This document shows, in pieces, positions 1-12,631 of a stretch of DNA of 64,000 nt. Source of the stretch: Escherichia coli (GTDB lineage: Bacteria; Pseudomonadota; Gammaproteobacteria; Enterobacterales; Enterobacteriaceae). A program made the position numbers and the translations under genes. Every line of letters starts with the position of its first letter. Position 1 is the stretch's first letter. Location of the stretch: assembly GCF_003790525.1 (NCBI RefSeq), contig NZ_CP033635.1, one strand, 5' to 3'. Below the pieces are notes generated by a model. The model was not told the DNA's origin. It ran no database searches and saw only the letters and a program-made list of their open reading frames with translations.

Positions 1-1443
1 CCGAACATCGCTAACCGCAACAAAGGCGGGCGGCGCAAACCGAAAAAGAATTTTTTCAGCGACGAAGCCATCGAAAAGCTGGAGCAGATTTTCTTTGAGC
101 AGTCTTTCGACTATCAGTTGCACTGGTATCGCGCCGGGCTTGAGCACCGCATCCGCGATATCCTGAAATCCCGCCAGATTGGCGCAACGTTTTATTTTTC
201 CCGCGAGGCGCTGCTGCGTGCCCTGAAAACCGGTCATAACCAGATTTTTCTGTCGGCCAGTAAAACGCAGGCGTATGTGTTCCGCGAATACATCATCGCC
301 TTTGCCCGGCTGGTTGACGTTGACCTGACCGGTGACCCGATTGTCCTGGGCAATAACGGCGCAAAACTGATTTTTCTCGGCACCAACTCCAACACCGCGC
401 AGAGCCATAACGGCGACCTGTACGTCGACGAGATTTTCTGGATCCCGAATTTTCAGGTACTGCGTAAGGTGGCATCAGGTATGGCCTCACAGAGTCACCT
501 GCGCTCGACCTATTTCTCCACCCCGTCCACGCTGGCGCACGACGCCTACCCGTTCTGGTCGGGTGAACTGTTTAACCGGGGACGCGCCAGCGCCGCCGAA
601 CGCGTGGAAATCGACGTCAGTCATAACGCCCTTGCCGGTGGGCTTCTCTGTGCGGACGGCCAGTGGCGGCAGATTGTCACCATTGAGGACGCCCTGAAAG
701 GCGGCTGCACGCTGTTCGACATTGAGCAGCTCAAACGCGAAAACAGCGCCGACGATTTTAAAAACCTGTTCATGTGTGAATTTGTTGACGACAAGGCGTC
801 GGTATTCCCGTTCGAGGAGCTGCAACGCTGCATGGTCGACACGCTGGAAGAATGGGAAGACTATGCGCCGTTTGCCGCCAATCCGTTCGGCTCCCGCCCG
901 GTATGGATTGGTTACGACCCGTCACACCGTGGCGACAGCGCCGGATGCGTGGTGCTGGCACCGCCGGTGGTGGCCGGAGGTAAATTCAGAATACTTGAGC
1001 GTCACCAGTGGAAAGGCATGGACTTTGCCACTCAGGCGGAATCCATCCGCAAACTCACCGAAAAATACAACGTCGAATACATCGGAATTGATGCCACCGG
1101 CCTCGGTGTCGGCGTGTTCCAGCTCGTGCGCTCGTTCTATCCCGCCGCGCGCGATATCCGCTACACGCCGGAAATGAAAACCGCAATGGTGCTCAAGGCA
1201 AAAGACGTCATCCGCCGTGGCTGTCTGGAATATGACGTCAGCGCCACCGACATCACCAGCTCGTTCATGGCTATCCGCAAGACCATGACCAGCAGCGGAC
1301 GCAGCGCCACCTATGAGGCCAGCCGTAGCGAGGAAGCCAGCCACGCCGACCTCGCCTGGGCGACCATGCACGCCCTGTTAAATGAGCCACTCACCGCCGG
1401 TATCAGCACCCCGCTGACATCCACCATTCTGGAGTTTTACTGA
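1..1443 (+). CDS. P: Terminase large (ATPase) subunit, P2 gpP-like, 5' end cut by the window edge
   Basis: Frame 1 is open from nt 1. The track start at 118 is a TTG codon inside the ORF. The stop overlaps the portal start (TGATG at 1441-1445), and the gene sits upstream of the portal gene and cos as in the P2 PQ operon. Confidence 0.85.
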   Translation, partial: PNIANRNKGGRRKPKKNFFSDEAIEKLEQIFFEQSFDYQLHWYRAGLEHRIRDILKSRQIGATFYFSREALLRALKTGHNQIFLSASKTQAYVFREYIIAFARLVDVDLTGDPIVLGNNGAKLIFLGTNSNTAQSHNGDLYVDEIFWIPNFQVLRKVASGMASQSHLRSTYFSTPSTLAHDAYPFWSGELFNRGRASAAERVEIDVSHNALAGGLLCADGQWRQIVTIEDALKGGCTLFDIEQLKRENSADDFKNLFMCEFVDDKASVFPFEELQRCMVDTLEEWEDYAPFAANPFGSRPVWIGYDPSHRGDSAGCVVLAPPVVAGGKFRILERHQWKGMDFATQAESIRKLTEKYNVEYIGIDATGLGVGVFQLVRSFYPAARDIRYTPEMKTAMVLKAKDVIRRGCLEYDVSATDITSSFMAIRKTMTSSGRSATYEASRSEEASHADLAWATMHALLNEPLTAGISTPLTSTILEFY

Positions 1444-2477
1444 TGAGCAAGAAAAAAGGGAAAACACCGCAACCTGCGGCAAAAAAAATGACCGCCAGCG
1501 CCCCGAAAATGGAGGCATTCACCTTTGGTGAGCCGGTGCCGGTACTCGACCGCCGTGACATTCTGGATTACGTCGAGTGCATCAGTAACGGCAGATGGTA
1601 TGAGCCACCAGTCAGCTTTACCGGTCTGGCAAAAAGCCTGCGTGCTGCCGTGCATCACAGCTCACCGATTTACGTCAAACGTAACATTCTGGCCTCAACG
1701 TTTATCCCACACCCGTGGCTTTCTCAGCAGGATTTCAGCCGCTTTGTGCTGGATTTTCTGGTATTCGGTAATGCGTTTCTGGAAAAGCGTTACAGCACCA
1801 CCGGTAAGGTCATCAGACTGGAAACCTCACCGGCAAAATATACCCGCCGTGGCGTGGAGGAGGATGTTTACTGGTGGGTGCCGTCCTTCAACGAGCCGAC
1901 ACCTTTCGCGCCCGGCTCCGTGTTTCACCTGCTGGAGCCGGATATTAATCAGGAGCTGTACGGTCTGCCGGAATATCTCAGCGCCCTTAACTCTGCCTGG
2001 CTGAATGAGTCGGCCACGCTGTTCCGCCGCAAGTATTACGAAAACGGCGCTCATGCCGGATATATCATGTACGTCACTGATGCCGTGCAGGATCGCAACG
2101 ATATCGAAATGCTTCGCGAAAACATGGTGAAGTCGAAAGGCCGCAACAACTTTAAAAACCTGTTTCTCTATGCCCCGCAGGGGAAAGCTGACGGCATTAA
2201 AATTATCCCGCTCAGTGAAGTGGCAACGAAGGACGATTTTTTTAATATCAAAAAAGCCAGCGCCGCTGACCTGCTGGACGCGCACCGCATCCCCTTTCAG
2301 TTGATGGGCGGCAAGCCGGAGAACGTCGGGTCGCTGGGTGATATTGAGAAAGTAGCAAAGGTCTTTGTCCGCAATGAGCTTATCCCGTTACAGGACAGGA
2401 TCCGCGAGATAAACGGCTGGCTCGGTCAGGAGGTCATCCGATTTAAAAACTACTCACTGGACACTGACAACGGCTGA
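1443..2477 (+). CDS. Q: Portal (capsid-packaging) protein, P2 gpQ-like, 344 aa
   Basis: Length and position match gpQ (last gene before cos). It is coupled to P and followed by a hairpin plus T-run. Confidence 0.85.
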   Translation: MSKKKGKTPQPAAKKMTASAPKMEAFTFGEPVPVLDRRDILDYVECISNGRWYEPPVSFTGLAKSLRAAVHHSSPIYVKRNILASTFIPHPWLSQQDFSRFVLDFLVFGNAFLEKRYSTTGKVIRLETSPAKYTRRGVEEDVYWWVPSFNEPTPFAPGSVFHLLEPDINQELYGLPEYLSALNSAWLNESATLFRRKYYENGAHAGYIMYVTDAVQDRNDIEMLRENMVKSKGRNNFKNLFLYAPQGKADGIKIIPLSEVATKDDFFNIKKASAADLLDAHRIPFQLMGGKPENVGSLGDIEKVAKVFVRNELIPLQDRIREINGWLGQEVIRFKNYSLDTDNG

Positions 2478-2482
2478 ACATC

Positions 2483-2504
2483 GCCGCCTGCGGGCGGCTT
2501 TTTT
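2483..2504 (+). terminator. Rho-independent terminator of the P-Q operon
   Basis: GCCGCC (2483-2488) pairs with GGCGGC (2493-2498) around loop TGCG, followed by TTTTTT (2499-2504), 6 nt after the Q stop. Confidence 0.8.
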
Positions 2505-2646
2505 ACACCCCGTCATCACGCCCTCACACGTTCGCCACTGTACAAAACACCCCGCAGACACACCAACGCCCCGGCAGGCCGACTAAACGCCATCACGACG
2601 CGCTCAGACGCTGAAAAAATAAAATCAGCACCACCGCCAGCGCGCA

Positions 2647-2665
2647 GTGCTTTCCCCGCCTCGCC
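2647..2665 (-). other. cos: cos cohesive-end sequence (P2 type)
   Basis: GTGCTTTCCCCGCCTCGCC is the reverse complement of GGCGAGGCGGGGAAAGCAC, the 19-nt P2 cohesive end as I recall it. It lies just downstream of Q as in P2. Confidence 0.8.
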
Positions 2666-2892
2666 CGCCCGCTTCATGGGTCGGTTTTGATGCAATTCCA
2701 AAAGCCGTCCAAACTCTCTTAGGCTAAATGTCCAACGAGAAAATAGTTCTTTGAATGTGAATGCATTTTAATGCAGAGTTATGCCCAGCATTTTTGTACA
2801 CTTCGATGTATCAAATGCGCTGCAAACGATCAAATATGGATGTTTTATCAAGCATCCCCCAAAAGATATTTACATCATCCCATGAGGTTAAG

Positions 2893-3966
2893 ATGGATAA
2901 CAAAATCGTAGAAATTGAGACAAATAAGCTTGATTTTGACCCTAAAAACCCACGTTTCTTTCGTCTCAATGATGCCAGTAACGCTGCAACAGTCATTGAG
3001 GAAATGTTAGATGACGAAAGTGTCCACGATCTAATGCTATCAATCGGTCAGCAAGGTTACTTTCCTGGAGAACCTTTATTGGCAGTAAAAAGCAATGGAA
3101 ACTACATCGTGGTTGAGGGAAACAGACGCTTAGCTGCTGTAAAGTTGCTCAATGGAGATCTGCTTCCTCCAAAAAGAAAACTTAAAGGTGTGCAAGAAAT
3201 CATTGATGATACTACCAATAAACCTAAGAAGCTTCCCTGCATCATTTATGAAAACCGAGAGGATGTACTGAGATATATCGGTTATCGTCATATAACTGGG
3301 GTCAAAGAATGGGACTCATTATCTAAAGCCAAATACCTTAAAGAGTTATGTGATACTTTTTATTCACATGAGCCTAAAGAGATAGTATTAAAAAATCTGG
3401 CTCGTGAGATTGGGAGTAAACCACATTATGTTGCAACACTTCTCACTGCACTGAACTTATATGAAGTCGCGCATGACCATGAGTTTTTTAATTTACCCAT
3501 GAAGGCTTCTGACGTGGAATTTTCATATATAACCACAGCTTTGGGATATTCAAAAATCACAAACTGGTTAGGTCTACAGGATAAAAAGGATTTTTTAGAC
3601 CCAAATTTAAATGAAGAAAACCTTAAGCGTTTATTCTCTTGGTTTTTTGTGCCTGACCAACAAGGTAGAACCATCATCGGTGAGTCTCGAAGAATAAAAG
3701 ATATTGCAGCAGTGGTTGAGAAACCCGAAGCAATTGAAATTCTCATGAAAAGTTCAAACTTGGATGAAGCATATCTATATACCAGCGGAGAAAGAGAAGC
3801 ATTAGATAAAGCACTAAACGCAGCTAGTGTTAAATTAAGAGTAGTTTGGGATATGCTACTTAAAGCTAAAGAATTAACATTAGAGCATGAAGAGGCTGCA
3901 TCTGAAATTTTTGAGATGTCAAAAAATATTAGAAATCAGATCAGAAGCAAAAGGGAGGATGATTGA
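2893..3966 (+). CDS. ParB/Srx N-terminal-domain protein (357 aa), cargo gene 1
   Basis: Start chosen at ATG 2893 with GAGG at 2885-2888. Motifs KLDFDPKNPRF and YIVVEGNRRLAAVKLL resemble ParB box I/II (GxxR arginine patch), with a helical C-terminal half. Codon usage is AT-rich, unlike the flanking phage genes. Confidence 0.7.
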   Translation: MDNKIVEIETNKLDFDPKNPRFFRLNDASNAATVIEEMLDDESVHDLMLSIGQQGYFPGEPLLAVKSNGNYIVVEGNRRLAAVKLLNGDLLPPKRKLKGVQEIIDDTTNKPKKLPCIIYENREDVLRYIGYRHITGVKEWDSLSKAKYLKELCDTFYSHEPKEIVLKNLAREIGSKPHYVATLLTALNLYEVAHDHEFFNLPMKASDVEFSYITTALGYSKITNWLGLQDKKDFLDPNLNEENLKRLFSWFFVPDQQGRTIIGESRRIKDIAAVVEKPEAIEILMKSSNLDEAYLYTSGEREALDKALNAASVKLRVVWDMLLKAKELTLEHEEAASEIFEMSKNIRNQIRSKREDD

Positions 3967-3970
3967 GATT

Positions 3971-4996
3971 ATGATTACAAATCTTGATTCAATGCCTTCT
4001 AATGAGCCTTATTTATGGGCTGATTATATTGAGATATTGGCCTTAACTAATATCGACAGGTCATTCAGTCGAGGAGACCTATATAGCACACTGCAAGCTC
4101 AACCCGAAGCAGTACTAGCTGAAACAGATGAAGCAGAAGAAGAGGGCGTTTATGATGTTGATGATGAAAATGATACGCCTGTACGCAAGAGAACAAAACG
4201 AAGTGTTAGTCGAGCATATACTGACAGAAAGTGGAGCTATGCGATAGGCTTCATACGACAACGCATTGATTTATTTGGGGATAGTTACCCTTTTACTTTA
4301 TCAGAAGACAACGATACTGTAGAGTTACGTGATATATCAGAAAAGCCACTGGAACATTTAGAAAGACTATATTTAGCTTTACTAATCTGTGCTAACATAA
4401 AATATGTCAACATAATGAGCAGAAGAGAGATAACGCGCAGTTTTGAACTAATTAGTTTACCTATTTTTGAAAGCCTAATGCCTAGCGGTAGCATAATAAA
4501 AGCATGCTGGGCTTCTGGTGGTCAAGCGGCCCCTTACACTGGAACTCTATATAATAAATTTAAGAGTATTGCTTCCGATATCCGTTGCACAGCGAACTTC
4601 AAAGAACGAGATTTCAGTCGAGGAAATAGTGGTGACGGAGGCCTTGACATAATTGCCTGGCATCCAATGGGAGATCAACGAGATGCCATCCCTATTTCTT
4701 TTGTTCAGTGTGGCTGTTCTCAAGAAGAGTGGGAAGCGAAGCAGCTTGAGGCCTCACCTGCGATGCTCTACAGTAAATTCCCCGTAGCTCACCGATGGGC
4801 AACTTATTATTTCTTACCTCAAGATCTACGATGGATAGATGGTGAGTGGGCGCATAAAAATAAGTTAGGCGATGCTATTTTTGTTGATCGCCTAAGATTA
4901 ATCAATTTAACCAGAGCATCTGATAATATTGATCACAGTCAAAATATTAGCTATCTAGATATCATCCTTGATCCTTCCAGCGCGATCGCTGCTTAA
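3971..4996 (+). CDS. PD-(D/E)xK-like (Mrr-type) putative nuclease with an acidic N-terminal region (341 aa; alternative start 3959), cargo gene 2
   Basis: AAGGGAGG at 3951-3958 lies inside the end of gene 1. ATG 3959 overlaps the gene 1 TGA (3964-3966) and ATG 3971 follows it. FELISLPIFESL ... GNSGDGGLDIIAW ... ISFVQCGCS resembles the Mrr catalytic core E..D..QxK, but with Gly in place of Lys. Confidence 0.55.
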   Translation: MITNLDSMPSNEPYLWADYIEILALTNIDRSFSRGDLYSTLQAQPEAVLAETDEAEEEGVYDVDDENDTPVRKRTKRSVSRAYTDRKWSYAIGFIRQRIDLFGDSYPFTLSEDNDTVELRDISEKPLEHLERLYLALLICANIKYVNIMSRREITRSFELISLPIFESLMPSGSIIKACWASGGQAAPYTGTLYNKFKSIASDIRCTANFKERDFSRGNSGDGGLDIIAWHPMGDQRDAIPISFVQCGCSQEEWEAKQLEASPAMLYSKFPVAHRWATYYFLPQDLRWIDGEWAHKNKLGDAIFVDRLRLINLTRASDNIDHSQNISYLDIILDPSSAIAA

Positions 4997-5931
4997 TCCC
5001 ATAAATCTGGAAGGTTTCTAGCAACCGCCTCAAACAATGGAGGCGGTACTGCATTACCTACCACAGTATATTTCATATTAATAGAAGCCCGTTCAGTTTC
5101 TGGGAAAATTAAATCCCCAAAACCTTGTAAAATAGCAGCCTCTCGATAGCTAAACCTACGAGCTGGTGCATCCGAAGTAAATTGCCACTTATCAGGTCCC
5201 AATTTTTCTAATGTTGGACTTATTGGATGTAGAGGCATATGTCTAGGATTTGCAACAATTGTTTTAGATATCTGATCCCAATCTTGCCTACGGTTTCGCG
5301 ATAGATAATACCAATGAAAATCGGCGTCATAAAACTCGCCAACAGGCCAAACAGGCATATGCCCAATAGCATCACGAATTGTGGAATATGGTGTCAAACC
5401 ATCACCATGTGTTGGTTTTGGAAATTTGTATGTAATACCGTAGTCCTTTCGTATTCCTACGATAAAGATTCGCTTCCTATCTTGGGATACCCCATAATGG
5501 GACGCATTCAGAATTTGCGAGCTTACTGTATAACCTGCTTCTTCGAAAACTTTGAATTGATCCTTTAATAAATGCTCAAAGTTACGCCTTACCATACCAG
5601 AGACATTCTCTACAATGAATGCTTTTGGCTTAATTTTACTCAAAGCACGGGCAAACTCTAAATATAGTGTATTAATCTTTCTATCTGCCTTCCTTGCCCC
5701 ACCTTGACTAAATCCTTGGCAAGGATAGCATCCGATGAGCAACTCAGCAGAAGGGAACGACTGGAGCCCTGAGATATCGCCCAAAATGTAGTCAGTTTCA
5801 GGATGGTTTTCTAAGTAAACGTCCCTTGCGTAAGGCAAAATATCATTTGCCATAAGCACATTGAAACCTGCGTTCAAAACTCCCGCATCAGAACCACCAC
5901 ATCCAGAAAAAAGTGAAACTACAGTTGGCAT
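4993..5931 (-). CDS. DNA (cytosine-5) methyltransferase, 312 aa, cargo gene 3
   Basis: All canonical C5-MTase motifs are readable: FSGCGG (I), PCQGFS (IV), ENV (VI), QDRKRIFIVG (VIII), RRFSYREAAILQGF (IX-like) and GNAVPPPL (X). AGGAGG at 5937-5942 lies 5 nt upstream of the ATG. Confidence 0.92.
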   Translation of the reverse strand: MPTVVSLFSGCGGSDAGVLNAGFNVLMANDILPYARDVYLENHPETDYILGDISGLQSFPSAELLIGCYPCQGFSQGGARKADRKINTLYLEFARALSKIKPKAFIVENVSGMVRRNFEHLLKDQFKVFEEAGYTVSSQILNASHYGVSQDRKRIFIVGIRKDYGITYKFPKPTHGDGLTPYSTIRDAIGHMPVWPVGEFYDADFHWYYLSRNRRQDWDQISKTIVANPRHMPLHPISPTLEKLGPDKWQFTSDAPARRFSYREAAILQGFGDLIFPETERASINMKYTVVGNAVPPPLFEAVARNLPDLWD

Positions 5932-5957
5932 TGACCCCTCCTAAAAACCGACCGCGT

Positions 5958-5963
5958 ATTATA
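5958..5963 (-). promoter_or_regulatory. Candidate -10 hexamer (TATAAT) for the methyltransferase gene
   Basis: A perfect TATAAT on the minus strand lies ~27 nt upstream of the ATG. The -35 region is poor (CTTTTC). Confidence 0.35.
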
Positions 5964-6173
5964 GCGAAACACCCCGTTGGGAAAAGCTAGATTTTGCCAA
6001 GTCTTGATATTCTCACGTTTTAGTAGTTGTGGCCATCTTTAACGAGAAAAAGATAAAATTGACTTCTCATTAATTTTCAATAGGTTTAATTGTAAGCTCA
6101 AACTAACGCCTCGCGACACTCGTTATTCAACCCCGCCAGCCCTGAAAACAAGTTTCACGACTGGCGGCGTTCT

Positions 6174-6380
6174 CTATCGTCTGCGTTGTGGTGGCGCAAC
6201 TCTGGACTGACCGATATGGTTAAACCGCCCGTAATTATCCCGGACTATTTCGGCACACCCGACCAGCTCATCGGGCGTCAGATTTTCGTTGACCATAATC
6301 CGCTGTAAACGCTGAACAATAGCCATCAGCTTGATATTTTTAGTTTTATGGTGCGGTATCTCGCCTGGTATTCTGTGCAT
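6174..6380 (-). CDS. Small hypothetical protein (68 aa), last gene of the early/replication operon
   Basis: Its ATG overlaps the upstream stop as TAATG at 6378-6382. No recognisable motif. Confidence 0.45.
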   Translation of the reverse strand: MHRIPGEIPHHKTKNIKLMAIVQRLQRIMVNENLTPDELVGCAEIVRDNYGRFNHIGQSRVAPPQRRR

Positions 6381-6832
6381 TATCCAAGCCACCCGTTTTG
6401 CTGTGCACGCTCCATCTGTTCATCTGAATAGTTCCATGCTCCATCCGTGGCAACCATTGCCCCGCCAGACATCCCCGTCTCTGGTTCATACATAACAGCA
6501 AGGCCGAGCTGATGCATAATTTCATGATTAATTCTGAATACCAGGCCACGCTCACTAAGTTCTTTCCAGTTCACAATCTCATATGCGCCTGTATTAAGCA
6601 GCTCAATACTTAGCAAGACATAATCTTCCAGCCAGTCTGACAGGTCAGTAACATCTGTTATCCGGGCTTCAACATTTCGCCCCGTATACACACCCTGCAC
6701 CCATTCATACAAAATCAACGTGTCCCCGCGCTCATAATTACGGTCATTTTTCCGGAACTCTGCACGTTTCTTTCCTTCCAGCACAAGGTCGAAATATTTT
6801 GCGTGCAGCTTTACCTCGTGAATTTTTGCCAT
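6380..6832 (-). CDS. ASCH/DUF3850-like domain protein with a C-terminal extension carrying an HExxH motif (150 aa)
   Basis: The N-terminus IHEVKLHAKYFDLVLEGKKRAEFRKNDRNYERGDTLILYEW fits the DUF3850 pattern as I recall it. HEIMH lies in the C-terminal part. The ATG overlaps the gpA stop (TAATG at 6830-6834). Confidence 0.6.
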   Translation of the reverse strand: MAKIHEVKLHAKYFDLVLEGKKRAEFRKNDRNYERGDTLILYEWVQGVYTGRNVEARITDVTDLSDWLEDYVLLSIELLNTGAYEIVNWKELSERGLVFRINHEIMHQLGLAVMYEPETGMSGGAMVATDGAWNYSDEQMERAQQNGWLG

Positions 6833-9117
6833 TATGTCCACTCCATTACTGTTGAGAATCCCGGCCACTCATCAGCGACCGGATACGTGAATTTTTTCCC
6901 GTCATAATTTACGGTCGCGCCACGCGCCAGCGCCTCAAGCTCCCATCGCTGCGGCCTGATACCGTTCTGAGCAAGGTCAACGCGGATACGGGTAATTTGC
7001 GTTCGTTCCGACCGGGTCAGTCTGGCCGATGGCGCTATTTCATGTGGTTTTAACGGGCTTCCGTTTCTCTGCTGACGATTTGGTGTTCTCAGTTCGTGTT
7101 TTAATGCACCTCTGAGCGCCCTCACGACCTCTGGCTCATTCCATTCGATAACACCGTCATCAACCAGATTAAGCACGGCTGCGGCATGTTCATAAGGTGT
7201 GGGAGCCGGTAACGAAGTATCACTGCCGGTGAGCTTTCCACAGTTATTGACAGGACTCCGAGGCGCGGCGATGCCGCTTTTTAAAGTCAAAGGCTCAACG
7301 ACCGGAACTTTCGGCACAATGCGCCAGTCCGTCGTTCTGGTGATATGAATATGACGCGCGCCGAGATGCGGCGCGTAAATACCGACCACTCTCTCGACTT
7401 CTTCCTCGTACTCGTTAACGTCACTCGACGGGCTACGGGCAACCCTGACAGTCTGACAATCGCGCGGGACATTTGCCCCACCCTGCGCGCTGATATACAA
7501 CGCAAAATCACCACTGTCTGCGGCAGCGCGAGCAGCCTCGACGCGTTCGTCAAACTCATCAGCAATACTGACGCCGCGAGGTAATTTGCGTAGTTCACGG
7601 TAAGCCCCCATTGTCGGTAGGCCAACCGTTTTAAATTGCGGAATGCGCCACGTTGACGCCCATGCGGTAACAGCCGCGGCAGTGTCTTTCAGCGGCCTGC
7701 CGGTATCGTTATCGAGCTGACCATCCAGTGCATAGCCGTCGATGTTTTTTGAAATGTATTTCGCGATATACCCCGCAGCACCGCCCCGATTAAGGTGTTT
7801 TGCCTGAAAACGGTTTCGCGCGGCTCCTCTTTCGTCGCCATCCTCTTTGAGCGCATAGCGACGCATGATTTCGATAATCTGGTTACGCTGGCGCGAATTA
7901 CAAAAAAGCATCATATGCCAGTGCGGCGTTCCGTCGTGGTGTGGCTCGACGACACGCAAACCGTAGACCTGTAAATCATTATCCTTGAATGCCGTGCGCA
8001 TCAGGCTCCAGATACGGCAGAGATAACGCTGCGCATCCTTTGGATTAAATGCCTCATCGTTCCAGCCGTGATTAAGCTGCACGGTTTTACTTTCGCCTTT
8101 TCCTACCTGACGTGTCGGGTGATACTTTGACGGCGCGGTCAGCGTGATAAACATCCCCACATCACCCTCTGCAGCGGCGTAACGCTCAATACCGGCAATG
8201 GTGTTCATCAGCTCCATCCGGCGAATTTCAGGATTAGAAATACTGCCCATCACCTTACTGATAAGGTCGATGCGCTCGCCGGTTTCCCTGTTTTCAAGGT
8301 CACACGATTTAAGAAATTCCAGATTTGCCTGGCGGCGCGCACGCACATCACGAATGGCATGTTTACTGGCATAAGGTGAACGGTCTTTATTGACCTCCCC
8401 GACAGCAATCAGTAACGCCTCATGCCAGCGCATACGCTGGCCTTTAAGCTGTCTAATCCACCACTCATCGTTAAACAGGCGGGCAATGGCAGAATATGCC
8501 TGCCTCGTGGTCATCTGCCCTTTACGGTATTTTCTCCAGTACAGCGGGGAAATATTGAAAGCACGTGCAGCGCCAGCAACATGACCATACAGGTGAGCCT
8601 GCGCCTCATCCGTAAACAGCGATTCTTTTTCGCCATGGGCATCCACCCAGGCATCGCAGAGTTCCTCATACATCATGAAAAGCTGCGATGAGATACGGGC
8701 GGCAAACTTTTTCAGCTCCTTGTCATTCATTCCCGGCAGGCGCGCATAGTGGTCACGCTCTGCCAGAAACAGCAACGACGCGTCGGTGTTCATTTCATGG
8801 CGCTGATTCACACGCTCAATGCGCGGCCATAAACGACGCTGAAAAGTGGATGTGAGGAAATAAAACCCGTGCACCGGGCTTTTATTGCGCCGGATGTAGT
8901 CATAGCGTGAAGTAAACAGCGAGCGCAAAAAGTAAGGCAGGCGGTTAATCGTGGATAAAACACCTTGCACCTGACGCATCTCATCACGTGTAAGGGGTCT
9001 TTCGCGCCCGACGGCCTCGCGTGGCGCGTTCCATGCATAAGCACCGGTAAACATCTTACCGGTGCCTGCGGCAAATGCTGACGGAGGGACAAAACGCCCG
9101 GAGGCTTTAACGGCCAT
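6832..9117 (-). CDS. A: Replication initiation endonuclease, P2 gpA-like (761 aa from ATG 9117; the ORF is open to 9159)
   Basis: HUH-type motif EPHHDGTPHWHMMLF and tyrosine motif AGYIAKYISKN are present. The N-terminus MAVKASGRFVPPSAF and the length match my memory of P2 A. Confidence 0.9.
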   Translation of the reverse strand: MAVKASGRFVPPSAFAAGTGKMFTGAYAWNAPREAVGRERPLTRDEMRQVQGVLSTINRLPYFLRSLFTSRYDYIRRNKSPVHGFYFLTSTFQRRLWPRIERVNQRHEMNTDASLLFLAERDHYARLPGMNDKELKKFAARISSQLFMMYEELCDAWVDAHGEKESLFTDEAQAHLYGHVAGAARAFNISPLYWRKYRKGQMTTRQAYSAIARLFNDEWWIRQLKGQRMRWHEALLIAVGEVNKDRSPYASKHAIRDVRARRQANLEFLKSCDLENRETGERIDLISKVMGSISNPEIRRMELMNTIAGIERYAAAEGDVGMFITLTAPSKYHPTRQVGKGESKTVQLNHGWNDEAFNPKDAQRYLCRIWSLMRTAFKDNDLQVYGLRVVEPHHDGTPHWHMMLFCNSRQRNQIIEIMRRYALKEDGDERGAARNRFQAKHLNRGGAAGYIAKYISKNIDGYALDGQLDNDTGRPLKDTAAAVTAWASTWRIPQFKTVGLPTMGAYRELRKLPRGVSIADEFDERVEAARAAADSGDFALYISAQGGANVPRDCQTVRVARSPSSDVNEYEEEVERVVGIYAPHLGARHIHITRTTDWRIVPKVPVVEPLTLKSGIAAPRSPVNNCGKLTGSDTSLPAPTPYEHAAAVLNLVDDGVIEWNEPEVVRALRGALKHELRTPNRQQRNGSPLKPHEIAPSARLTRSERTQITRIRVDLAQNGIRPQRWELEALARGATVNYDGKKFTYPVADEWPGFSTVMEWT

Positions 9118-9382
9118 ATGAGCCAAAAGCCTCTGAACAACGCCTGCTGAGTTGCTCAACCTGCGCGTTTAAATCAGCAAAAGACTTTGCGCTTCCGGTC
9201 AGAATATCGTGATGCATCAGGCCGGAAACGAGCTGGCTTAATTTCGGGTAATAACCAACCACCGCCAGCCATTCCTGACCGGCGTTTTTACCGCTTTCAG
9301 CTCTCTTTTTCTCGTGGAGAATAAACTGAAAGCTGTCACTGGTAACGACATAACGTTCGCCAATTTCAATACGAATACTCAT
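9107..9382 (-). CDS. Small P2-type early-operon protein, unknown function (91 aa)
   Basis: ATGA overlap with the upstream gene at 9379-9382. Position is equivalent to the P2 orf80-83 group. Confidence 0.6.
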   Translation of the reverse strand: MSIRIEIGERYVVTSDSFQFILHEKKRAESGKNAGQEWLAVVGYYPKLSQLVSGLMHHDILTGSAKSFADLNAQVEQLSRRCSEAFGSYGR

Positions 9383-9603
9383 GCCGTTCTCCGGTAATGT
9401 TTGTTTTTTGCTTCAAAGACTGACTGACAGGAAACACAACGCGTGGCTGACGGATAAGCCGCACGACGGGCAGCAGGTATTGGCGCGTCACACTCTTCGC
9501 AAACCAGCGCAGAAGCACCGCAATGTTTTACCCTTGCCGCGTTAATCTGGCGCTCCAGTAATTCAGCCTGTTGTTCCTGAATAAAATCTACGTTGTCCGG
9601 CAT
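9379..9603 (-). CDS. TraR/DksA-type C4 zinc-finger protein (74 aa)
   Basis: CEECDAPIP...RCVSCQ forms a CxxC-N17-CxxC motif. TAATG coupling at 9601-9605. Confidence 0.75.
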   Translation of the reverse strand: MPDNVDFIQEQQAELLERQINAARVKHCGASALVCEECDAPIPAARRAAYPSATRCVSCQSVFEAKNKHYRRTA

Positions 9604-9905
9604 TACCAGTTCCTTTTGTCGTTAAGGTTTTTAAATTCATCAGCGCAATAGCTGGCGATTTCTGTCGTTAATTTCGTCAGTTCATCCACGGAGGAGATTT
9701 GCTTGTGAAACACAGCGCGTTTAACAAGTAAATTGACCACATCAGACAGGAGGTTTAATTCGTTCTGATAAATCGCGATAACAGACTCAGTTATTTCGCG
9801 TTTTTCTTTATCAAGACCAAGTTGAATAAGAGACAAATCGCCATTTTTCATAACGGCGATTTTTAGGGCGTTATTCAGTAATACAACTGAACGAGAACAG
9901 GACAT
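9603..9905 (-). CDS. Hypothetical early-operon protein (100 aa)
   Basis: ATG 9905 overlaps the upstream TGA (TGATG). No recognisable motif. Confidence 0.5.
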   Translation of the reverse strand: MSCSRSVVLLNNALKIAVMKNGDLSLIQLGLDKEKREITESVIAIYQNELNLLSDVVNLLVKRAVFHKQISSVDELTKLTTEIASYCADEFKNLNDKRNW

Positions 9906-10129
9906 CAAAGCACCTCCCCGCGAGACAATCCGATATTGTGAAATTTTTCCGACTCCTGACTGAGCAGCTCGACTATCTCCACGCGGGATAACTCCGCCTT
10001 TGTGATGTGGCGAATCATGGCGTCAAGATGAGAAGAAAAGCGCGTCGCTGCGTCGGCCTGTGCTTCGGTTCTGGCCTGTTGCAGCAGTAATGCGTATTTA
10101 CCGCACTGATTTTCAGAAACTGTATGCAT
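9905..10129 (-). CDS. Hypothetical early-operon protein (74 aa)
   Basis: Compact ORF in the operon between B and A. No recognisable motif. Confidence 0.5.
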
Positions 10130-10192
10130 GACTTTCTCCAGGCAAAAAGAAGCCCCGCACGATTAAGTGCGTTAAAAACTCTGGTTAATTAC

Positions 10193-10693
10193 TTAATGCA
10201 GATATTGCTCTGGTTTTACCGACGTCAGAATTGTCGGTGCATACTCAAACAGGCTGAATAATTCACGTAATGCACGGAATAAAGCATCACGCCAGTAACA
10301 TGATTCTTCATTAATTCGCCAGTATGGCTGGTTGAATTCTTTTTCAGTCAGTCGTGCGTGCATAAATAAAGTGCGACGCTGACTGACTGTTAAAAAACTA
10401 ATATATGCATACTCACTTGCGCCAACCTGACGGCGTTTTGAGAATGCGCCACGCAATTCATCAATTGCACAAACCAGTCGTTCACGTTCGACGTCGTTCA
10501 TTTCTTCAAAACGCATCGTTGCGTGACGCTGTTTTAACTGTGCATGAAAGCAAACCGTTAGCCGTTCGCGCTCCATCATCTGATTATAATAATCACATGT
10601 ATCCTGCCAGCGAGGGACGGCAAGATGCTTGCCAATTATCCGGCGCATAGCTGCTGGCTGTTTTTCAACGAGATTAAGCGTCATCACTGTCAT
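10193..10693 (-). CDS. B: Replication protein B (helicase-loader-like), P2 gpB-like, 166 aa
   Basis: Same length and position as P2 B. The sequence MTVMTLNLVEKQPAAMRRIIGKHLAVPRWQD matches my memory of gpB. Confidence 0.8.
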   Translation of the reverse strand: MTVMTLNLVEKQPAAMRRIIGKHLAVPRWQDTCDYYNQMMERERLTVCFHAQLKQRHATMRFEEMNDVERERLVCAIDELRGAFSKRRQVGASEYAYISFLTVSQRRTLFMHARLTEKEFNQPYWRINEESCYWRDALFRALRELFSLFEYAPTILTSVKPEQYLH

Positions 10694-10860
10694 TTCCAGC
10701 CCCTCCGGCTTTTCAGAAAGGTCAGAGCCTTTTTTAACGGACTCTGTTTTTTGGTGCGGATAATGATTCCCTTACGCCCCTTACCGTGGGTGATGGTGAA
10801 GTCAATCGCCCTGGGGCTTTCGTTACGCAGTAACTGAGCAATACAACGCGGTTCACTCAT
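10690..10860 (-). CDS. Small protein between cox and B (56 aa from ATG 10860)
   Basis: The ATG lies 2 nt after the cox stop. The stop overlaps the B start. Confidence 0.5.
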   Translation of the reverse strand: MSEPRCIAQLLRNESPRAIDFTITHGKGRKGIIIRTKKQSPLKKALTFLKSRRGWK

Positions 10861-10862
10861 AA

Positions 10863-11135
10863 TCACAACCCCATCCACAAAAGCCATGCATCACGCTGTT
10901 CAACTGGTCGGTTATAAAACGCCTCTCGTACAGCGCGATTAAACTCTGGAATGAAAACCCACTTCTCACCGACACGAGCGTTCGGCTTACTTGGATCACG
11001 AAGCTCAATAACTGGCAACTTATTCTCTTTTACCATCTTGACTACAGCCGTTTCTGGCTTACCAAGTAACTCTGCAAACTTAACCGTATGTACCGCATCA
11101 ATCGGGTACTGAATCACATAGTCATTGACTTCCAT
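10863..11135 (-). CDS. cox: Cox-like excisionase / early repressor (90 aa)
   Basis: First gene of the early operon, divergent from C. The C-terminal ...WVFIPEFN...RDAWLLWMGL resembles the P2 Cox tail (...DGWLMWLGL). Confidence 0.75.
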   Translation of the reverse strand: MEVNDYVIQYPIDAVHTVKFAELLGKPETAVVKMVKENKLPVIELRDPSKPNARVGEKWVFIPEFNRAVREAFYNRPVEQRDAWLLWMGL

Positions 11136-11258
11136 TGATTAGCCCTTTTTGCTTTCGTGTTACCCTTATTAGATCCAGTCCCTTCTAGGTCGCACCTGTC
11201 CTTTCTAGGGACTGGCTAACACACTCAAAAGGTCACCAATACACAACCTTTTGACGGG

Positions 11259-11287
11259 AATATAAGTCACCAATAGGTTACTGTCAA
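11259..11287 (-). promoter_or_regulatory. Early promoter (Pe-like) reading toward cox
   Basis: On the minus strand: TTGACA (11287-11282), a 17-nt spacer, then TATATT (11264-11259). GTCACCAATA direct repeats at 11232-11241 and 11266-11275 flank the -10. Confidence 0.65.
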
Positions 11288-11581
11288 ATGCAGACATTCG
11301 AAAAACTGAAAGCGATTAGGAAAGCAGAAGGCTTAACACAGGCGAAATTCAGCGAAATTAGCGGGATAGCTCTAGGAACAGTCAAAAATTACGAAAGTGG
11401 GCATAAAGACCCTGGTCTCAGCATCGTTATGCGAGTCACAAATACGCCTTTATTTAAAAAATATACGCTCTGGTTAATGACTGGTGATACGTCACCACAA
11501 GCTGGTCAGATCGCGCCGGCTCTCGCACACATTGGGCAAAAACCAACAGAATCAGACCACTCCGAAAAACAGACTGGTTAA
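11288..11581 (+). CDS. C: Immunity repressor, P2 C-like HTH protein (97 aa)
   Basis: An XRE-type HTH is present (LTQAKFSEISGIALGTVKNYESG). The C-terminal KYTLWLMTG...GQIAPALAHIGQ matches the conserved P2 C tail as I recall it. Confidence 0.8.
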   Translation: MQTFEKLKAIRKAEGLTQAKFSEISGIALGTVKNYESGHKDPGLSIVMRVTNTPLFKKYTLWLMTGDTSPQAGQIAPALAHIGQKPTESDHSEKQTG

Positions 11582-11650
11582 CACTCTATAAACATTACAT
11601 TTTCACCATTTGTTACCAAGATGGTGAATACAGCGTCAGAGGGCTTTCTT

Positions 11651-12631
11651 ATGTCAATTAAGAAGCTCGATGATGGACGCTATGAAGTGGACATTAGACC
11701 TCGCGGTCGCGACGGAAAACGCATCCGCAGGAAATTTGAAAGAAAAGCTGAGGCTGTAGCATTTGAGCGATACACAATCGCCTACGCCAGCCAGAAAGAA
11801 TGGGCAGGTCAGCGAGCAGATCGCAGAACTTTGAGTGAGTTGCTGAACATCTGGTGGAAATATCACGGGCAAAACCACGAGCATGGAACAAAAGAGTTTA
11901 ATCATCTGCTCAAAACCATCAGCGGCATAGGTGATATACCAGTGAGCCGGATGAGCAAAAGAGCTTTGATGGATTATCGTTCCATGCGACTACGTGATGG
12001 TATCAGTGCCGCAACGATAAACCGTGACATGTACCGATTATCCGGCATGTTCACAAAATTAATTCAATTGGATGAATTTTCCGGGCAACACCCAATTCAC
12101 GGACTGCCGCCACTGGCGGAGGCCAACCCTGAAATGACGTTCCTGGAAAAAGCAGAAATCGAAAAACTGTTAAATGTTTTGGATGGTGATGACTTACTTG
12201 TCGCACTTTTATGTCTGAGCACTGGAGGAAGATGGACGGAAGTTGCCACGCTAAAACCAGCACAGATTACAAATTGCAGGGTTACCTTCCTGAAAACCAA
12301 AAACGGTAAAAAGCGAACCGTGCCGATTTCTGAGGAACTGGAGAAAAAAGTTAAAGAGGAGGCCAGCGCTAAATTATTCAAAGTTGATTATGAGAAGTTT
12401 TGCGGGATTTTACGCAGAGTGAAGCCAGATATACCACCCAATCAGGCAACCCACATCCTGCGGCATACATTCGCAAGCCATTTCATGATGAATGGGGGCA
12501 ATATAATCGCACTGCAACAGATTCTGGGACATGCGAGCATTCAGCAGACGATGGCCTATGCGCACCTTGCGCCTGACTACCTGCAAAATGCCGTCGCGCT
12601 GAATCCTCTAAAAGGCGGAGTGACGTTATAA
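11651..12631 (+). CDS. int: Tyrosine integrase, P2 Int-like (326 aa from ATG 11651)
   Basis: The N-terminus MSIKKLDDGRYEVDIRPRGRDGKRIRRKF parallels P2 Int. The catalytic HILRHTFASHF ... LGHASIQQTMAYAHL (R-H-R-Y) is present. Confidence 0.9.
   Translation: MSIKKLDDGRYEVDIRPRGRDGKRIRRKFERKAEAVAFERYTIAYASQKEWAGQRADRRTLSELLNIWWKYHGQNHEHGTKEFNHLLKTISGIGDIPVSRMSKRALMDYRSMRLRDGISAATINRDMYRLSGMFTKLIQLDEFSGQHPIHGLPPLAEANPEMTFLEKAEIEKLLNVLDGDDLLVALLCLSTGGRWTEVATLKPAQITNCRVTFLKTKNGKKRTVPISEELEKKVKEEASAKLFKVDYEKFCGILRRVKPDIPPNQATHILRHTFASHFMMNGGNIIALQQILGHASIQQTMAYAHLAPDYLQNAVALNPLKGGVTL

Follow-up and report, generated by a model that had tools for sequence, protein, structure and literature searches.

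The question raised by this locus is what two adjacent genes of a P2-like prophage do beside a gene for a DNA methyltransferase. The window, i.e., the whole 64,000-nucleotide (nt) stretch of Escherichia coli DNA that was analysed (contig NZ_CP033635.1), carries the prophage at bases 1-12,600, and the two genes, here called gene 1 and gene 2, lie in it next to a convergent C5 cytosine DNA methyltransferase gene (the methylase). The reading that we favour, and hold to be reasonably likely, is that the three genes form a prophage-borne restriction-modification-type defence module. In the proposed mechanism, the methylase would mark the resident DNA, and the products of genes 1 and 2 would be co-produced and work as a restriction component of two subunits. 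The gene 1 protein, with its NPR and GxRR boxes, helix-turn-helix (HTH)-like region and helical, dimerisation-like tail, would be the DNA-binding subunit and serve as a nucleoside triphosphate (NTP) switch or sensor. The gene 2 protein, a winged-helix-like N-terminal domain followed by a PD-(D/E)xK nuclease with its catalytic Lys shifted to K257, would be the effector. DNA without the cognate modification would be cut or nicked, and modified self DNA would be spared, either through blocked recognition or through a ParB-like switch that lets go, as with DndI. The complex, the use of NTP, the cleavage and the state of the DNA attacked are what we infer, with PD-lambda-5 and DndI as the working analogy.

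Pairing of gene 1 with gene 2

Two sets of loci were used: 73 genome loci identified via gene 2 (Proteobacteria, Campylobacterota, Bacteroidota, Acidobacteriota, Chloroflexota, Armatimonadota, and Verrucomicrobiota) and 59 IMG/VR viral loci found through gene 1. Gene 1 was immediately upstream of gene 2 in 69/73 genome loci, the other four being contig ends or truncations, and gene 2 followed gene 1 in 57/59 viral loci, with the genes 1-3 nt apart or overlapping at the junction. In the window, gene 2 has in-frame ATGs on either side of the TGA of gene 1 (3964-3966), at 3959 and at 3971; PGAP starts gene 2 at 3959, and most homologues begin at a Met matching 3971. In a comparison of 54 complete triads, gene 1 and gene 2 correlated in pairwise identity at r=0.93, and each of them with the methylase at only ~0.41; shared ancestry inflates such correlations, yet the contrast between the two values still stands. 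Of the two genes, gene 1 was the more conserved. They occur as an obligate pair and co-evolve tightly, in agreement with the first-pass annotation of this DNA, which had treated them as one unit. Fusions of gene 1 with gene 2, sought as a sign of interaction, were absent from the best 150 gene 2 representatives. At the corresponding position of Yersinia phage L-413C (diagnostic for Y. pestis), a shortened gene 1 homologue of 330 amino acids (aa) stands alone (L088, 207-1199), and this site without gene 2 and methylase is apparently a deletion remnant.

The predicted structure of the gene 1 protein was confident (predicted local distance difference test [pLDDT] score 87) and consists of a ParB/Srx (sulfiredoxin)-fold N-terminal domain, an HTH-like region, and a C-terminal domain of helices, the last of which (aa 300-356) form a long hairpin. 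All strings and coordinates quoted in the first-pass annotation for both genes were correct on re-reading the sequence, and its assignment of KLDFDPKNPRF (aa 12-22) and VVEGNRRLAAVKLL (aa 73-86) to ParB boxes, including an arginine patch, was borne out. In an alignment of 46 gene 1 homologues, residues F15, D16, N19, P20, R21, and F22 of the motif FDPKNPRF, the counterpart of the N-terminal "(Q/N)PR" motif in ParB proteins, were invariant, as was E75-G76-N77-R78-R79, the counterpart of ParB Box II (P-motif). FDPKNPRF is retained in the distant homologues linked to Dnd genes. Like the motifs of gene 2, these boxes are invariant or almost so in a family with members in several phyla. EGNRR aligned with GERRLRA of Helicobacter pylori ParB and Bacillus subtilis Spo0J, two ParB proteins of solved structure, and the Glu of the canonical GERR is replaced by Asn in all members of the gene 1 family. 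In ParB mutants, this Glu has been linked to CTP hydrolysis.

Matches of gene 1 to ParB profiles were weak. Pfam PF02195 (ParB_N) scored 15.3 bits (E=0.021), below its gathering score of 26.3, and TIGR00180 scored 30.5 (E=2.8e-7), below its cut-off of 58.45; a precomputed PF02195 match is present in many gene 1 homologues. Against PADLOC, aa 1-151 gave PD-Lambda-5_A in 24 of the best 25 matches (top E=2.5e-24), and residues 41-327 matched the candidate PDC-M38A. The Pfam and PADLOC scans gave no DUF262 signal in gene 1, which puts it outside the GmrS/SspE/DndI subtype, and its motif is EGNRR, not DGQQR; the earlier assignment to the DUF262 domains of GmrSD, SspE, and BrxU was therefore dropped. 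Gene 1 has a ParB/Srx fold that is nearer to canonical ParB, KorB, and Srx than to DUF262. The NTP specificity of such proteins can be predicted neither from sequence nor with AlphaFold3 (PMC12704722).

Two other roles for gene 1 were considered and rejected. A partition role was rejected on context, with no parA in any neighbourhood examined and TIGR00180 below its cut-off. A cryptic HEPN domain in the C-terminus was suggested by R127-x5-H133, which resembles Rx4-6H, and was rejected because the R127/H133 region aligns with Box III/HTH of Spo0J, no Pfam HEPN match was obtained, and the PD-Lambda-5_A matches end at about profile position 158.

The HTH-like region, which aligns with Spo0J, could also be read as that of a regulator. 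Gene 2 alone would then be an ordinary Type II endonuclease, and gene 1 would be a mere regulator of the DndB or C-protein type that acts through the HTH. DndB is itself a ParB-superfamily protein reported as a transcriptional regulator of the dnd genes (PMC10853773), and gene 2 may bind DNA by itself, through its winged-helix-like domain. This explanation is unlikely in view of the pairing, since gene 1 was never dispensable in either set of loci, is the more conserved gene of the two, and co-evolves with gene 2, not with the methylase. Its NTP-pocket boxes are invariant, and DndB is itself encoded alongside gene 1 in three of the Dnd-linked loci (L082, L085, and L086). Known controller proteins, moreover, are small and often absent.

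Gene 2 and its putative active-site lysine

The gene 2 protein has a winged-helix-like N-terminal domain (~aa 1-145) and a divergent PD-(D/E)xK nuclease domain (~aa 146-320). Its predicted structure was confident (pLDDT 92.7), the fold matches were to PD-(D/E)xK proteins, and the C-terminal domain is a remote restriction-endonuclease-like fold with an alpha-beta-beta-beta-alpha-beta core. No match was found at E<=1 in Pfam, NCBIfam, or PADLOC, the Pfam scan gave no HNH signal, and the profile search of PDB sequences returned a spurious OmpH match alone (E=0.39). The folds that had been proposed for the two proteins were thus both recovered, although Foldseek against PDB gave nothing significant for gene 2, and a GmrSD/SspE-type effector was not confirmed, gene 2 being neither an HNH nor a DUF1524 protein. 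Homologues were numerous, with 292 clusters at 90% identity in a word-indexed search and 1559 clusters at 50% identity in an exhaustive profile search, 446 of the latter at <1e-30. They come from Proteobacteria, Bacteroidota, Campylobacterota, Acidobacteriota, Chloroflexota, and others, and the best 150 representatives are stand-alone proteins, most of them ~300-380 aa long and a few of them shorter fragments of 171-271 aa. The family defined by gene 2 is unannotated.

The first-pass annotation had described an Mrr-type E/D/Q core with Gly at the Lys position, and the comparison supports a Mrr/MspJI-type D...Q core in a restriction-endonuclease-like fold. The strings concerned are FELISLPIFESL (with F158 and E159), GNSGDGGLDIIAW (aa 218-230), and ISFVQCGCS (aa 242-250). 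In the model, with helices at 148-169 and 254-257 and strands at 227-230 and 242-247, the conserved residues are in the expected places: E159 is in the helix that precedes the sheet, GDGGxD226 is where strand 2 begins, and Q246 is in strand 3. E159, GDGGxD (D222/D226), and Q246 are invariant across phyla in the family. Position 248, where the canonical Lys is expected, is Gly, Ala, or Ser in ~98% of the family, and a Lys is found nine residues further on. This sets gene 2 apart from the catalytic domains of Mrr, MspJI, and AspBHI (D-x(~20)-QxK); the N-terminal domain also differs, and sequence similarity of gene 2 to Mrr_cat or to any other Pfam family was not detected.

Lysines were counted in 343 aligned family members taken from database matches and genome loci. 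K257, in the short helix after strand 3, was present without K248 and with a small residue at 248 in 336/343. The reverse, K248 (QCKCS) without K257, was found in 6/343, four of which came from genome loci, all Bacteroidota metagenome-assembled genomes. Both lysines were found together in 0/343, and one sequence had neither. The catalytic Lys has probably moved within the active site and has not been lost, and the clean exclusion of K248 and K257 backs the earlier guess at a relocated catalytic residue. Together with the invariant acidic and Gln residues, this exclusion argues that gene 2 is a live nuclease.

The same Gly or Ala at the canonical position, if taken at face value, would make gene 2 a catalytically dead, DNA-binding restriction fold, and the system would act without DNA cleavage by gene 2, e.g., by way of nicking by gene 1, nucleotide depletion, or an abortive-infection trigger. 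There are precedents, in that inactive restriction-fold DNA binders are known in ParB-DUF262 systems, e.g., NsnA of Menshen (PMC12065111), and nicking or NTPase activity has been reported for ParB/Srx proteins (PMC12839542). A dead fold is nevertheless improbable here, as E159, D222, D226, and Q246 are kept across phyla, the exclusion of K248 and K257 is as expected of a conserved catalytic Lys, and the sole sequence without both lysines is also without E159 and D222.

Two further features of gene 2 were recorded. The cysteines C247 and C249 of QCGCS (nt 4709-4711 and 4715-4717) are invariant in the methylase-linked branch and replaced in the Dnd-linked branch (GQSAA, GQCATG); metal binding or a redox role are possibilities. 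The acidic tract noted in the first-pass annotation is present at aa 51-68 and is followed by basic RKRTKR. It is missing from most homologues, loops at the same site elsewhere are also acidic with other sequences, and it is the part of the model with the lowest pLDDT (68-80). A role for the tract as a family feature, e.g., a DNA mimic, was rejected since it is a lineage-variable insertion, and it is probably incidental.

Linkage to DNA modification genes

The methylase of the window matched Pfam PF00145 (E=1e-61) and TIGR00675 (E=1.8e-54), and its stop codon overlaps that of gene 2 in TTAA (4993-4996). Its nearest solved relative is M.HaeIII (full length, E=1.6e-48), which is too distant to fix the specificity. 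A C5 methylase adjoined the pair in 60/73 genome loci and 54/59 viral loci, usually convergent and right after gene 2. In seven of the most distant loci, dndB/C/D stood in place of the C5 methylase (PADLOC E 2e-164 to 1e-236), and two distant viral loci had a convergent D12-class N6-adenine methylase at the pair, above the Pfam cut-off. Vsr was found beside the methylase position of the pair in nine genome loci (eight with a methylase call and one without) and in the Ramlibacter locus L003. A modification module lies beside the pair in almost every informative locus, and different clades of the pair have different types of modification.

The count in 5426 complete E. coli genomes was 103 for gene 1, for gene 2, and for the methylase allele (at least 99% identity) alike, and 103 genomes carry all three. 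A methylase allele at 93% DNA identity is present in a further 36 genomes; in the single genome inspected, as in phage vB_EcoM-12474III, it adjoins a second allele of the gene 1/gene 2 pair in the same prophage position. The frequency of the module is ~2-2.6% of complete E. coli genomes.

It is very unlikely that the pair is instead a modification-dependent nuclease (Type IV-like, GmrSD/MspJI-style) directed against foreign modified DNA, with the methylase functionally separate, e.g., for protection from other restriction systems or for prophage epigenetics; the modification module adjoins the pair mostly in convergent orientation with stops overlapping or abutting, its type follows the clade, the frequency in E. 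coli is equal for the two genes and the methylase allele, and a nuclease dependent on 5-methylcytosine (5mC) would be toxic to its own cell if the methylase next to it wrote 5mC in the same sequence context. The first-pass annotation had tied the pair to the neighbouring methylase as a possible reader of its marks. The tie holds, the linkage being strongly conserved, but the genomic logic is that of restriction-modification, in which the own modification protects, and not that of the modification-dependent GmrSD and BrxU. All three alternatives to a restriction-modification-type module fit less well because of the obligate pairing, the conservation pattern, and the linkage to modification genes.

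Several points weigh against such a module. With Asn in Box II, gene 1 may bind NTP without hydrolysis or bind none. The canonical catalytic Lys of gene 2 is missing, and K257 is a putative replacement for it. Two loci with adequate flanks (L047 and L069) have no modification gene within ~6 kb, and it is mechanistically unexplained how one cassette would cope with 5mC, N6-methyladenine (6mA), and phosphorothioate marks. The second allele in E. coli has 32% (gene 1) and 25% (gene 2) identity to the window proteins with a methylase at 98%, and a 98% methylase with a divergent pair needs shared specificity or a mechanism independent of specificity. By the same figures, the restriction-like cassette and the methylase are separate, exchangeable modules. 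In the P2-hotspot table of Rousset et al. 2022, WP_000368931, WP_000570053, and WP_001143634 are given as "hypothetical + DNA_methylase", and there is a variant "DNA_methylase + hypothetical + ParBc"; the module is hypothetical cargo there, and neither variant is among the cloned systems tabulated (PMC9122126). Literature searches did not find a paper describing the gene 1/gene 2/methylase module.

Single loci added further observations. In L078 and L084 (Helicobacteraceae, Thiovulum), a DUF262/DUF1524 protein of the DndI/SspE type is directly upstream of the pair and beside dndC/D (L078 3141-4895; L084 3212-4930), with matches to PADLOC "Orf5" (3e-102) and to HEC-06 and SspE-like models, so that one modification module has two different ParB-superfamily restriction candidates beside it. 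Gene 2 of L078 is followed by a further gene, of 473 aa, that matches HEPN/PDC-M34B weakly. In Yersinia phage HQ103 (L090), an intact C5 methylase open reading frame (ORF) of 314 aa at 2335-3279 (-) follows the gene 1/gene 2 homologues and is unannotated in RefSeq. In L123 (IMG/VR), a 273-aa ORF of no known family lies between gene 2 and a farther C5 methylase, followed by an HNH_2 protein (Pfam E=5e-10; coordinates 7026-7868, 9043-10098); the extra ORF could encode another effector or be a neighbour without relation to the pair.

Insertion sequence (IS) elements were seen in three clinical E. coli strains. IS5 is inside gene 2 in JXZ9A32M and FXCREC123 (L011 and L013), and IS2 is just upstream of gene 1 in E2 (L012), with gene 1 and the methylase intact in all three. 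The insertions are compatible with occasional inactivation of a costly or toxic nuclease, and three strains are too few to argue from. In these strains and in the clinical strain WCHEC020031 (L002), the triad is 100% conserved inside a decayed prophage, whose portal and replication genes are, by annotation, truncated pseudogenes.

Prophage setting, known systems, and significance

The triad lies in a low-GC cargo island (35-44% GC, against 52-60% in the flanks) at P2 "hotspot 1", a validated defence site that is occupied by old/tin in P2 and, in relatives, by many defence systems (PMC9519451; PMC9122126). Between 2500 and 6400, the window shows 99.8-100% identity to phage Wphi, and also to a database record under the name "Peduovirus P2". 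Features are listed in Table 1.

Table 1 Features of the P2-like prophage and its cargo island, with positions in the window
Feature	Position	Strand	Remarks
Terminase gene	118-1443		Prophage backbone
Portal gene Q	1443-2477		Left flank of cargo
Low-GC cargo island	2700-6100		P2 hotspot 1, portal Q to orf91/A
Gene 1 (Wphi gp98, WP_000368931)	2893-3966	+	357 aa; same call by PGAP; GAGG 5 nt 5' of ATG
FDPKNPRF motif of gene 1	2935-2958	+	aa 15-22
EGNRR of gene 1	3115-3129	+	aa 75-79
Shine-Dalgarno-like AAGGGAGG for gene 2	3951-3958	+	Inside gene 1 3' end; read from sequence
Gene 2 (Wphi gp96, WP_000570053)	3971-4996	+	341 aa from ATG 3971, or 345 aa from ATG 3959
Acidic tract of gene 2, ETDEAEEEGVYDVDDEND	4121-4174	+	E51-D68, N-terminal domain; lineage-variable insertion
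Putative active-site residues of gene 2	4445-4741	+	From conservation and place in model
E159	4445-4447	+	Putative active site
D222	4634-4636	+	Putative active site
D226	4646-4648	+	Putative active site
Q246	4706-4708	+	Putative active site
G248	4712-4714	+	Canonical Lys position
K257	4739-4741	+	Proposed relocated Lys
C5 cytosine DNA methyltransferase (Wphi mth, WP_001143634)	4993-5931	-	312 aa; convergent with gene 2
Small ORF (Wphi gp92)	6174-6392	-	Between methylase and gene A
DUF3850/ASCH + DUF7415 protein	6380-6868	-	P2 orf91 homologue; Pfam E=1e-17 and 2e-14; between methylase and gene A
orf91/A replication genes	6380-9159		Right flank of cargo; gene A itself 6832-9159
Immunity region and integrase	Reaching 12631		Part of the prophage

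DUF3850 is frequently fused to ParB-CTPase folds in phages (PMC12704722); in the window, it is a separate phage-backbone gene that neighbours the ParB-like cargo gene and is not fused to it. Another combination of a ParB-superfamily protein, a methylase, and a nuclease is listed in Table S5 of PMC9122126, i.e., the theme recurs at the hotspot.

The closest validated system is PD-lambda-5, described as "ParB/HEPN, methyltransferase", an E. coli defence system with broad protection (Vassallo et al. 2022; PMC9519451). It was cloned in a host with the mrr region deleted and was called a compacted prophage version of a restriction-modification plus abortive infection system (PMC9519451). It is like the triad in its E. 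coli origin, its methylase partner, and its ParB N-terminal domain, which is specifically related to the first ~150 aa of gene 1. It is unlike the triad in that its profile was matched at 1-158 of ~440-500 only, with the HEPN part unmatched, and in that the window has three genes, the effector being a separate PD-(D/E)xK-like protein without a PADLOC match. PD-Lambda-5_B was not among the best 25 PADLOC matches of the window methylase, so that any match would be weaker than E=1.6e-24.

DndI is a ParB-like ATPase and HNH nickase that works with DndBCDE; phosphorothioate stimulates the ATPase and releases DndI from self DNA (PMC11662687). DndI (with IscS-DndBCDE) and SspE (with SspABCD) resemble the pair in joining a ParB-superfamily NTPase domain to a nuclease as the restriction arm of a modification system, and the distant gene 1/gene 2 branch is convergent to dndBCD, where such an arm is expected. 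They differ in being one polypeptide with DUF262 (DGQQR) and DUF1524/HNH, whereas here a canonical-type ParB domain (EGNRR) and a PD-(D/E)xK nuclease are on two polypeptides, and most members of the pair are with base methylases and not with phosphorothioation. The Type IV enzymes GmrSD and BrxU also combine a ParB-like domain with a nuclease, and GmrS and GmrD can be separate proteins (PMC4619093). Theirs are DUF262 and HNH domains that attack modified DNA and need no cognate methylase, while the strict linkage to a modification module here suggests the opposite polarity. With the canonical CTP-dependent clamps ParB, KorB, and Noc, gene 1 shares the N-terminal domain fold and the NPR and GxRR boxes followed by an HTH-like region; it is unlike them in lacking a parA or partition context, in having Asn for Glu in Box II, and in its other C-terminal domain. 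The linkage of a methylase to a putative nuclease gene is as in Type II restriction-modification. The best reading is that the module would work like DndI, SspE, and PD-lambda-5 yet belongs to none of them because DUF262, HNH, and HEPN domains are all missing from it and it consists of three genes.

More tentatively, and with odds that we put somewhat below even, the pair may be a widespread new class of NTP-dependent restriction enzyme. A canonical-type ParB switch would load on or scan DNA, read its modification, and license a PD-(D/E)xK nuclease with a migrated Lys, and the pair would be portable across 5mC, 6mA, and phosphorothioate. In work of the 1960s, prophage W is said to abort infection by T2 and T4, and E. 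coli W reportedly restricts lambda; the locus may be a candidate for this exclusion of T-even phages and lambda.

The finding would add a restriction component that is overlooked by present defence-finder libraries, with no Pfam, NCBIfam, or PADLOC model for gene 2 despite ~1,560 clusters at 50% identity, and the module is also in the classical phage Wphi. As judged from sequence, a ParB-superfamily sensor with a nuclease effector is of a known kind, and what appears new is this variant of modification-based immunity. In a split and modular arrangement, it would tie the NTP switch of canonical ParB type, familiar from chromosome segregation, to the discrimination of self from non-self, and it would be a clear evolutionary case of catalytic-lysine migration in a PD-(D/E)xK nuclease. 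One cassette matched to 5mC, 6mA, or phosphorothioate marks is a natural experiment, and if the pair is portable across these self-marks, the reading of modification would not be tied to one base chemistry.

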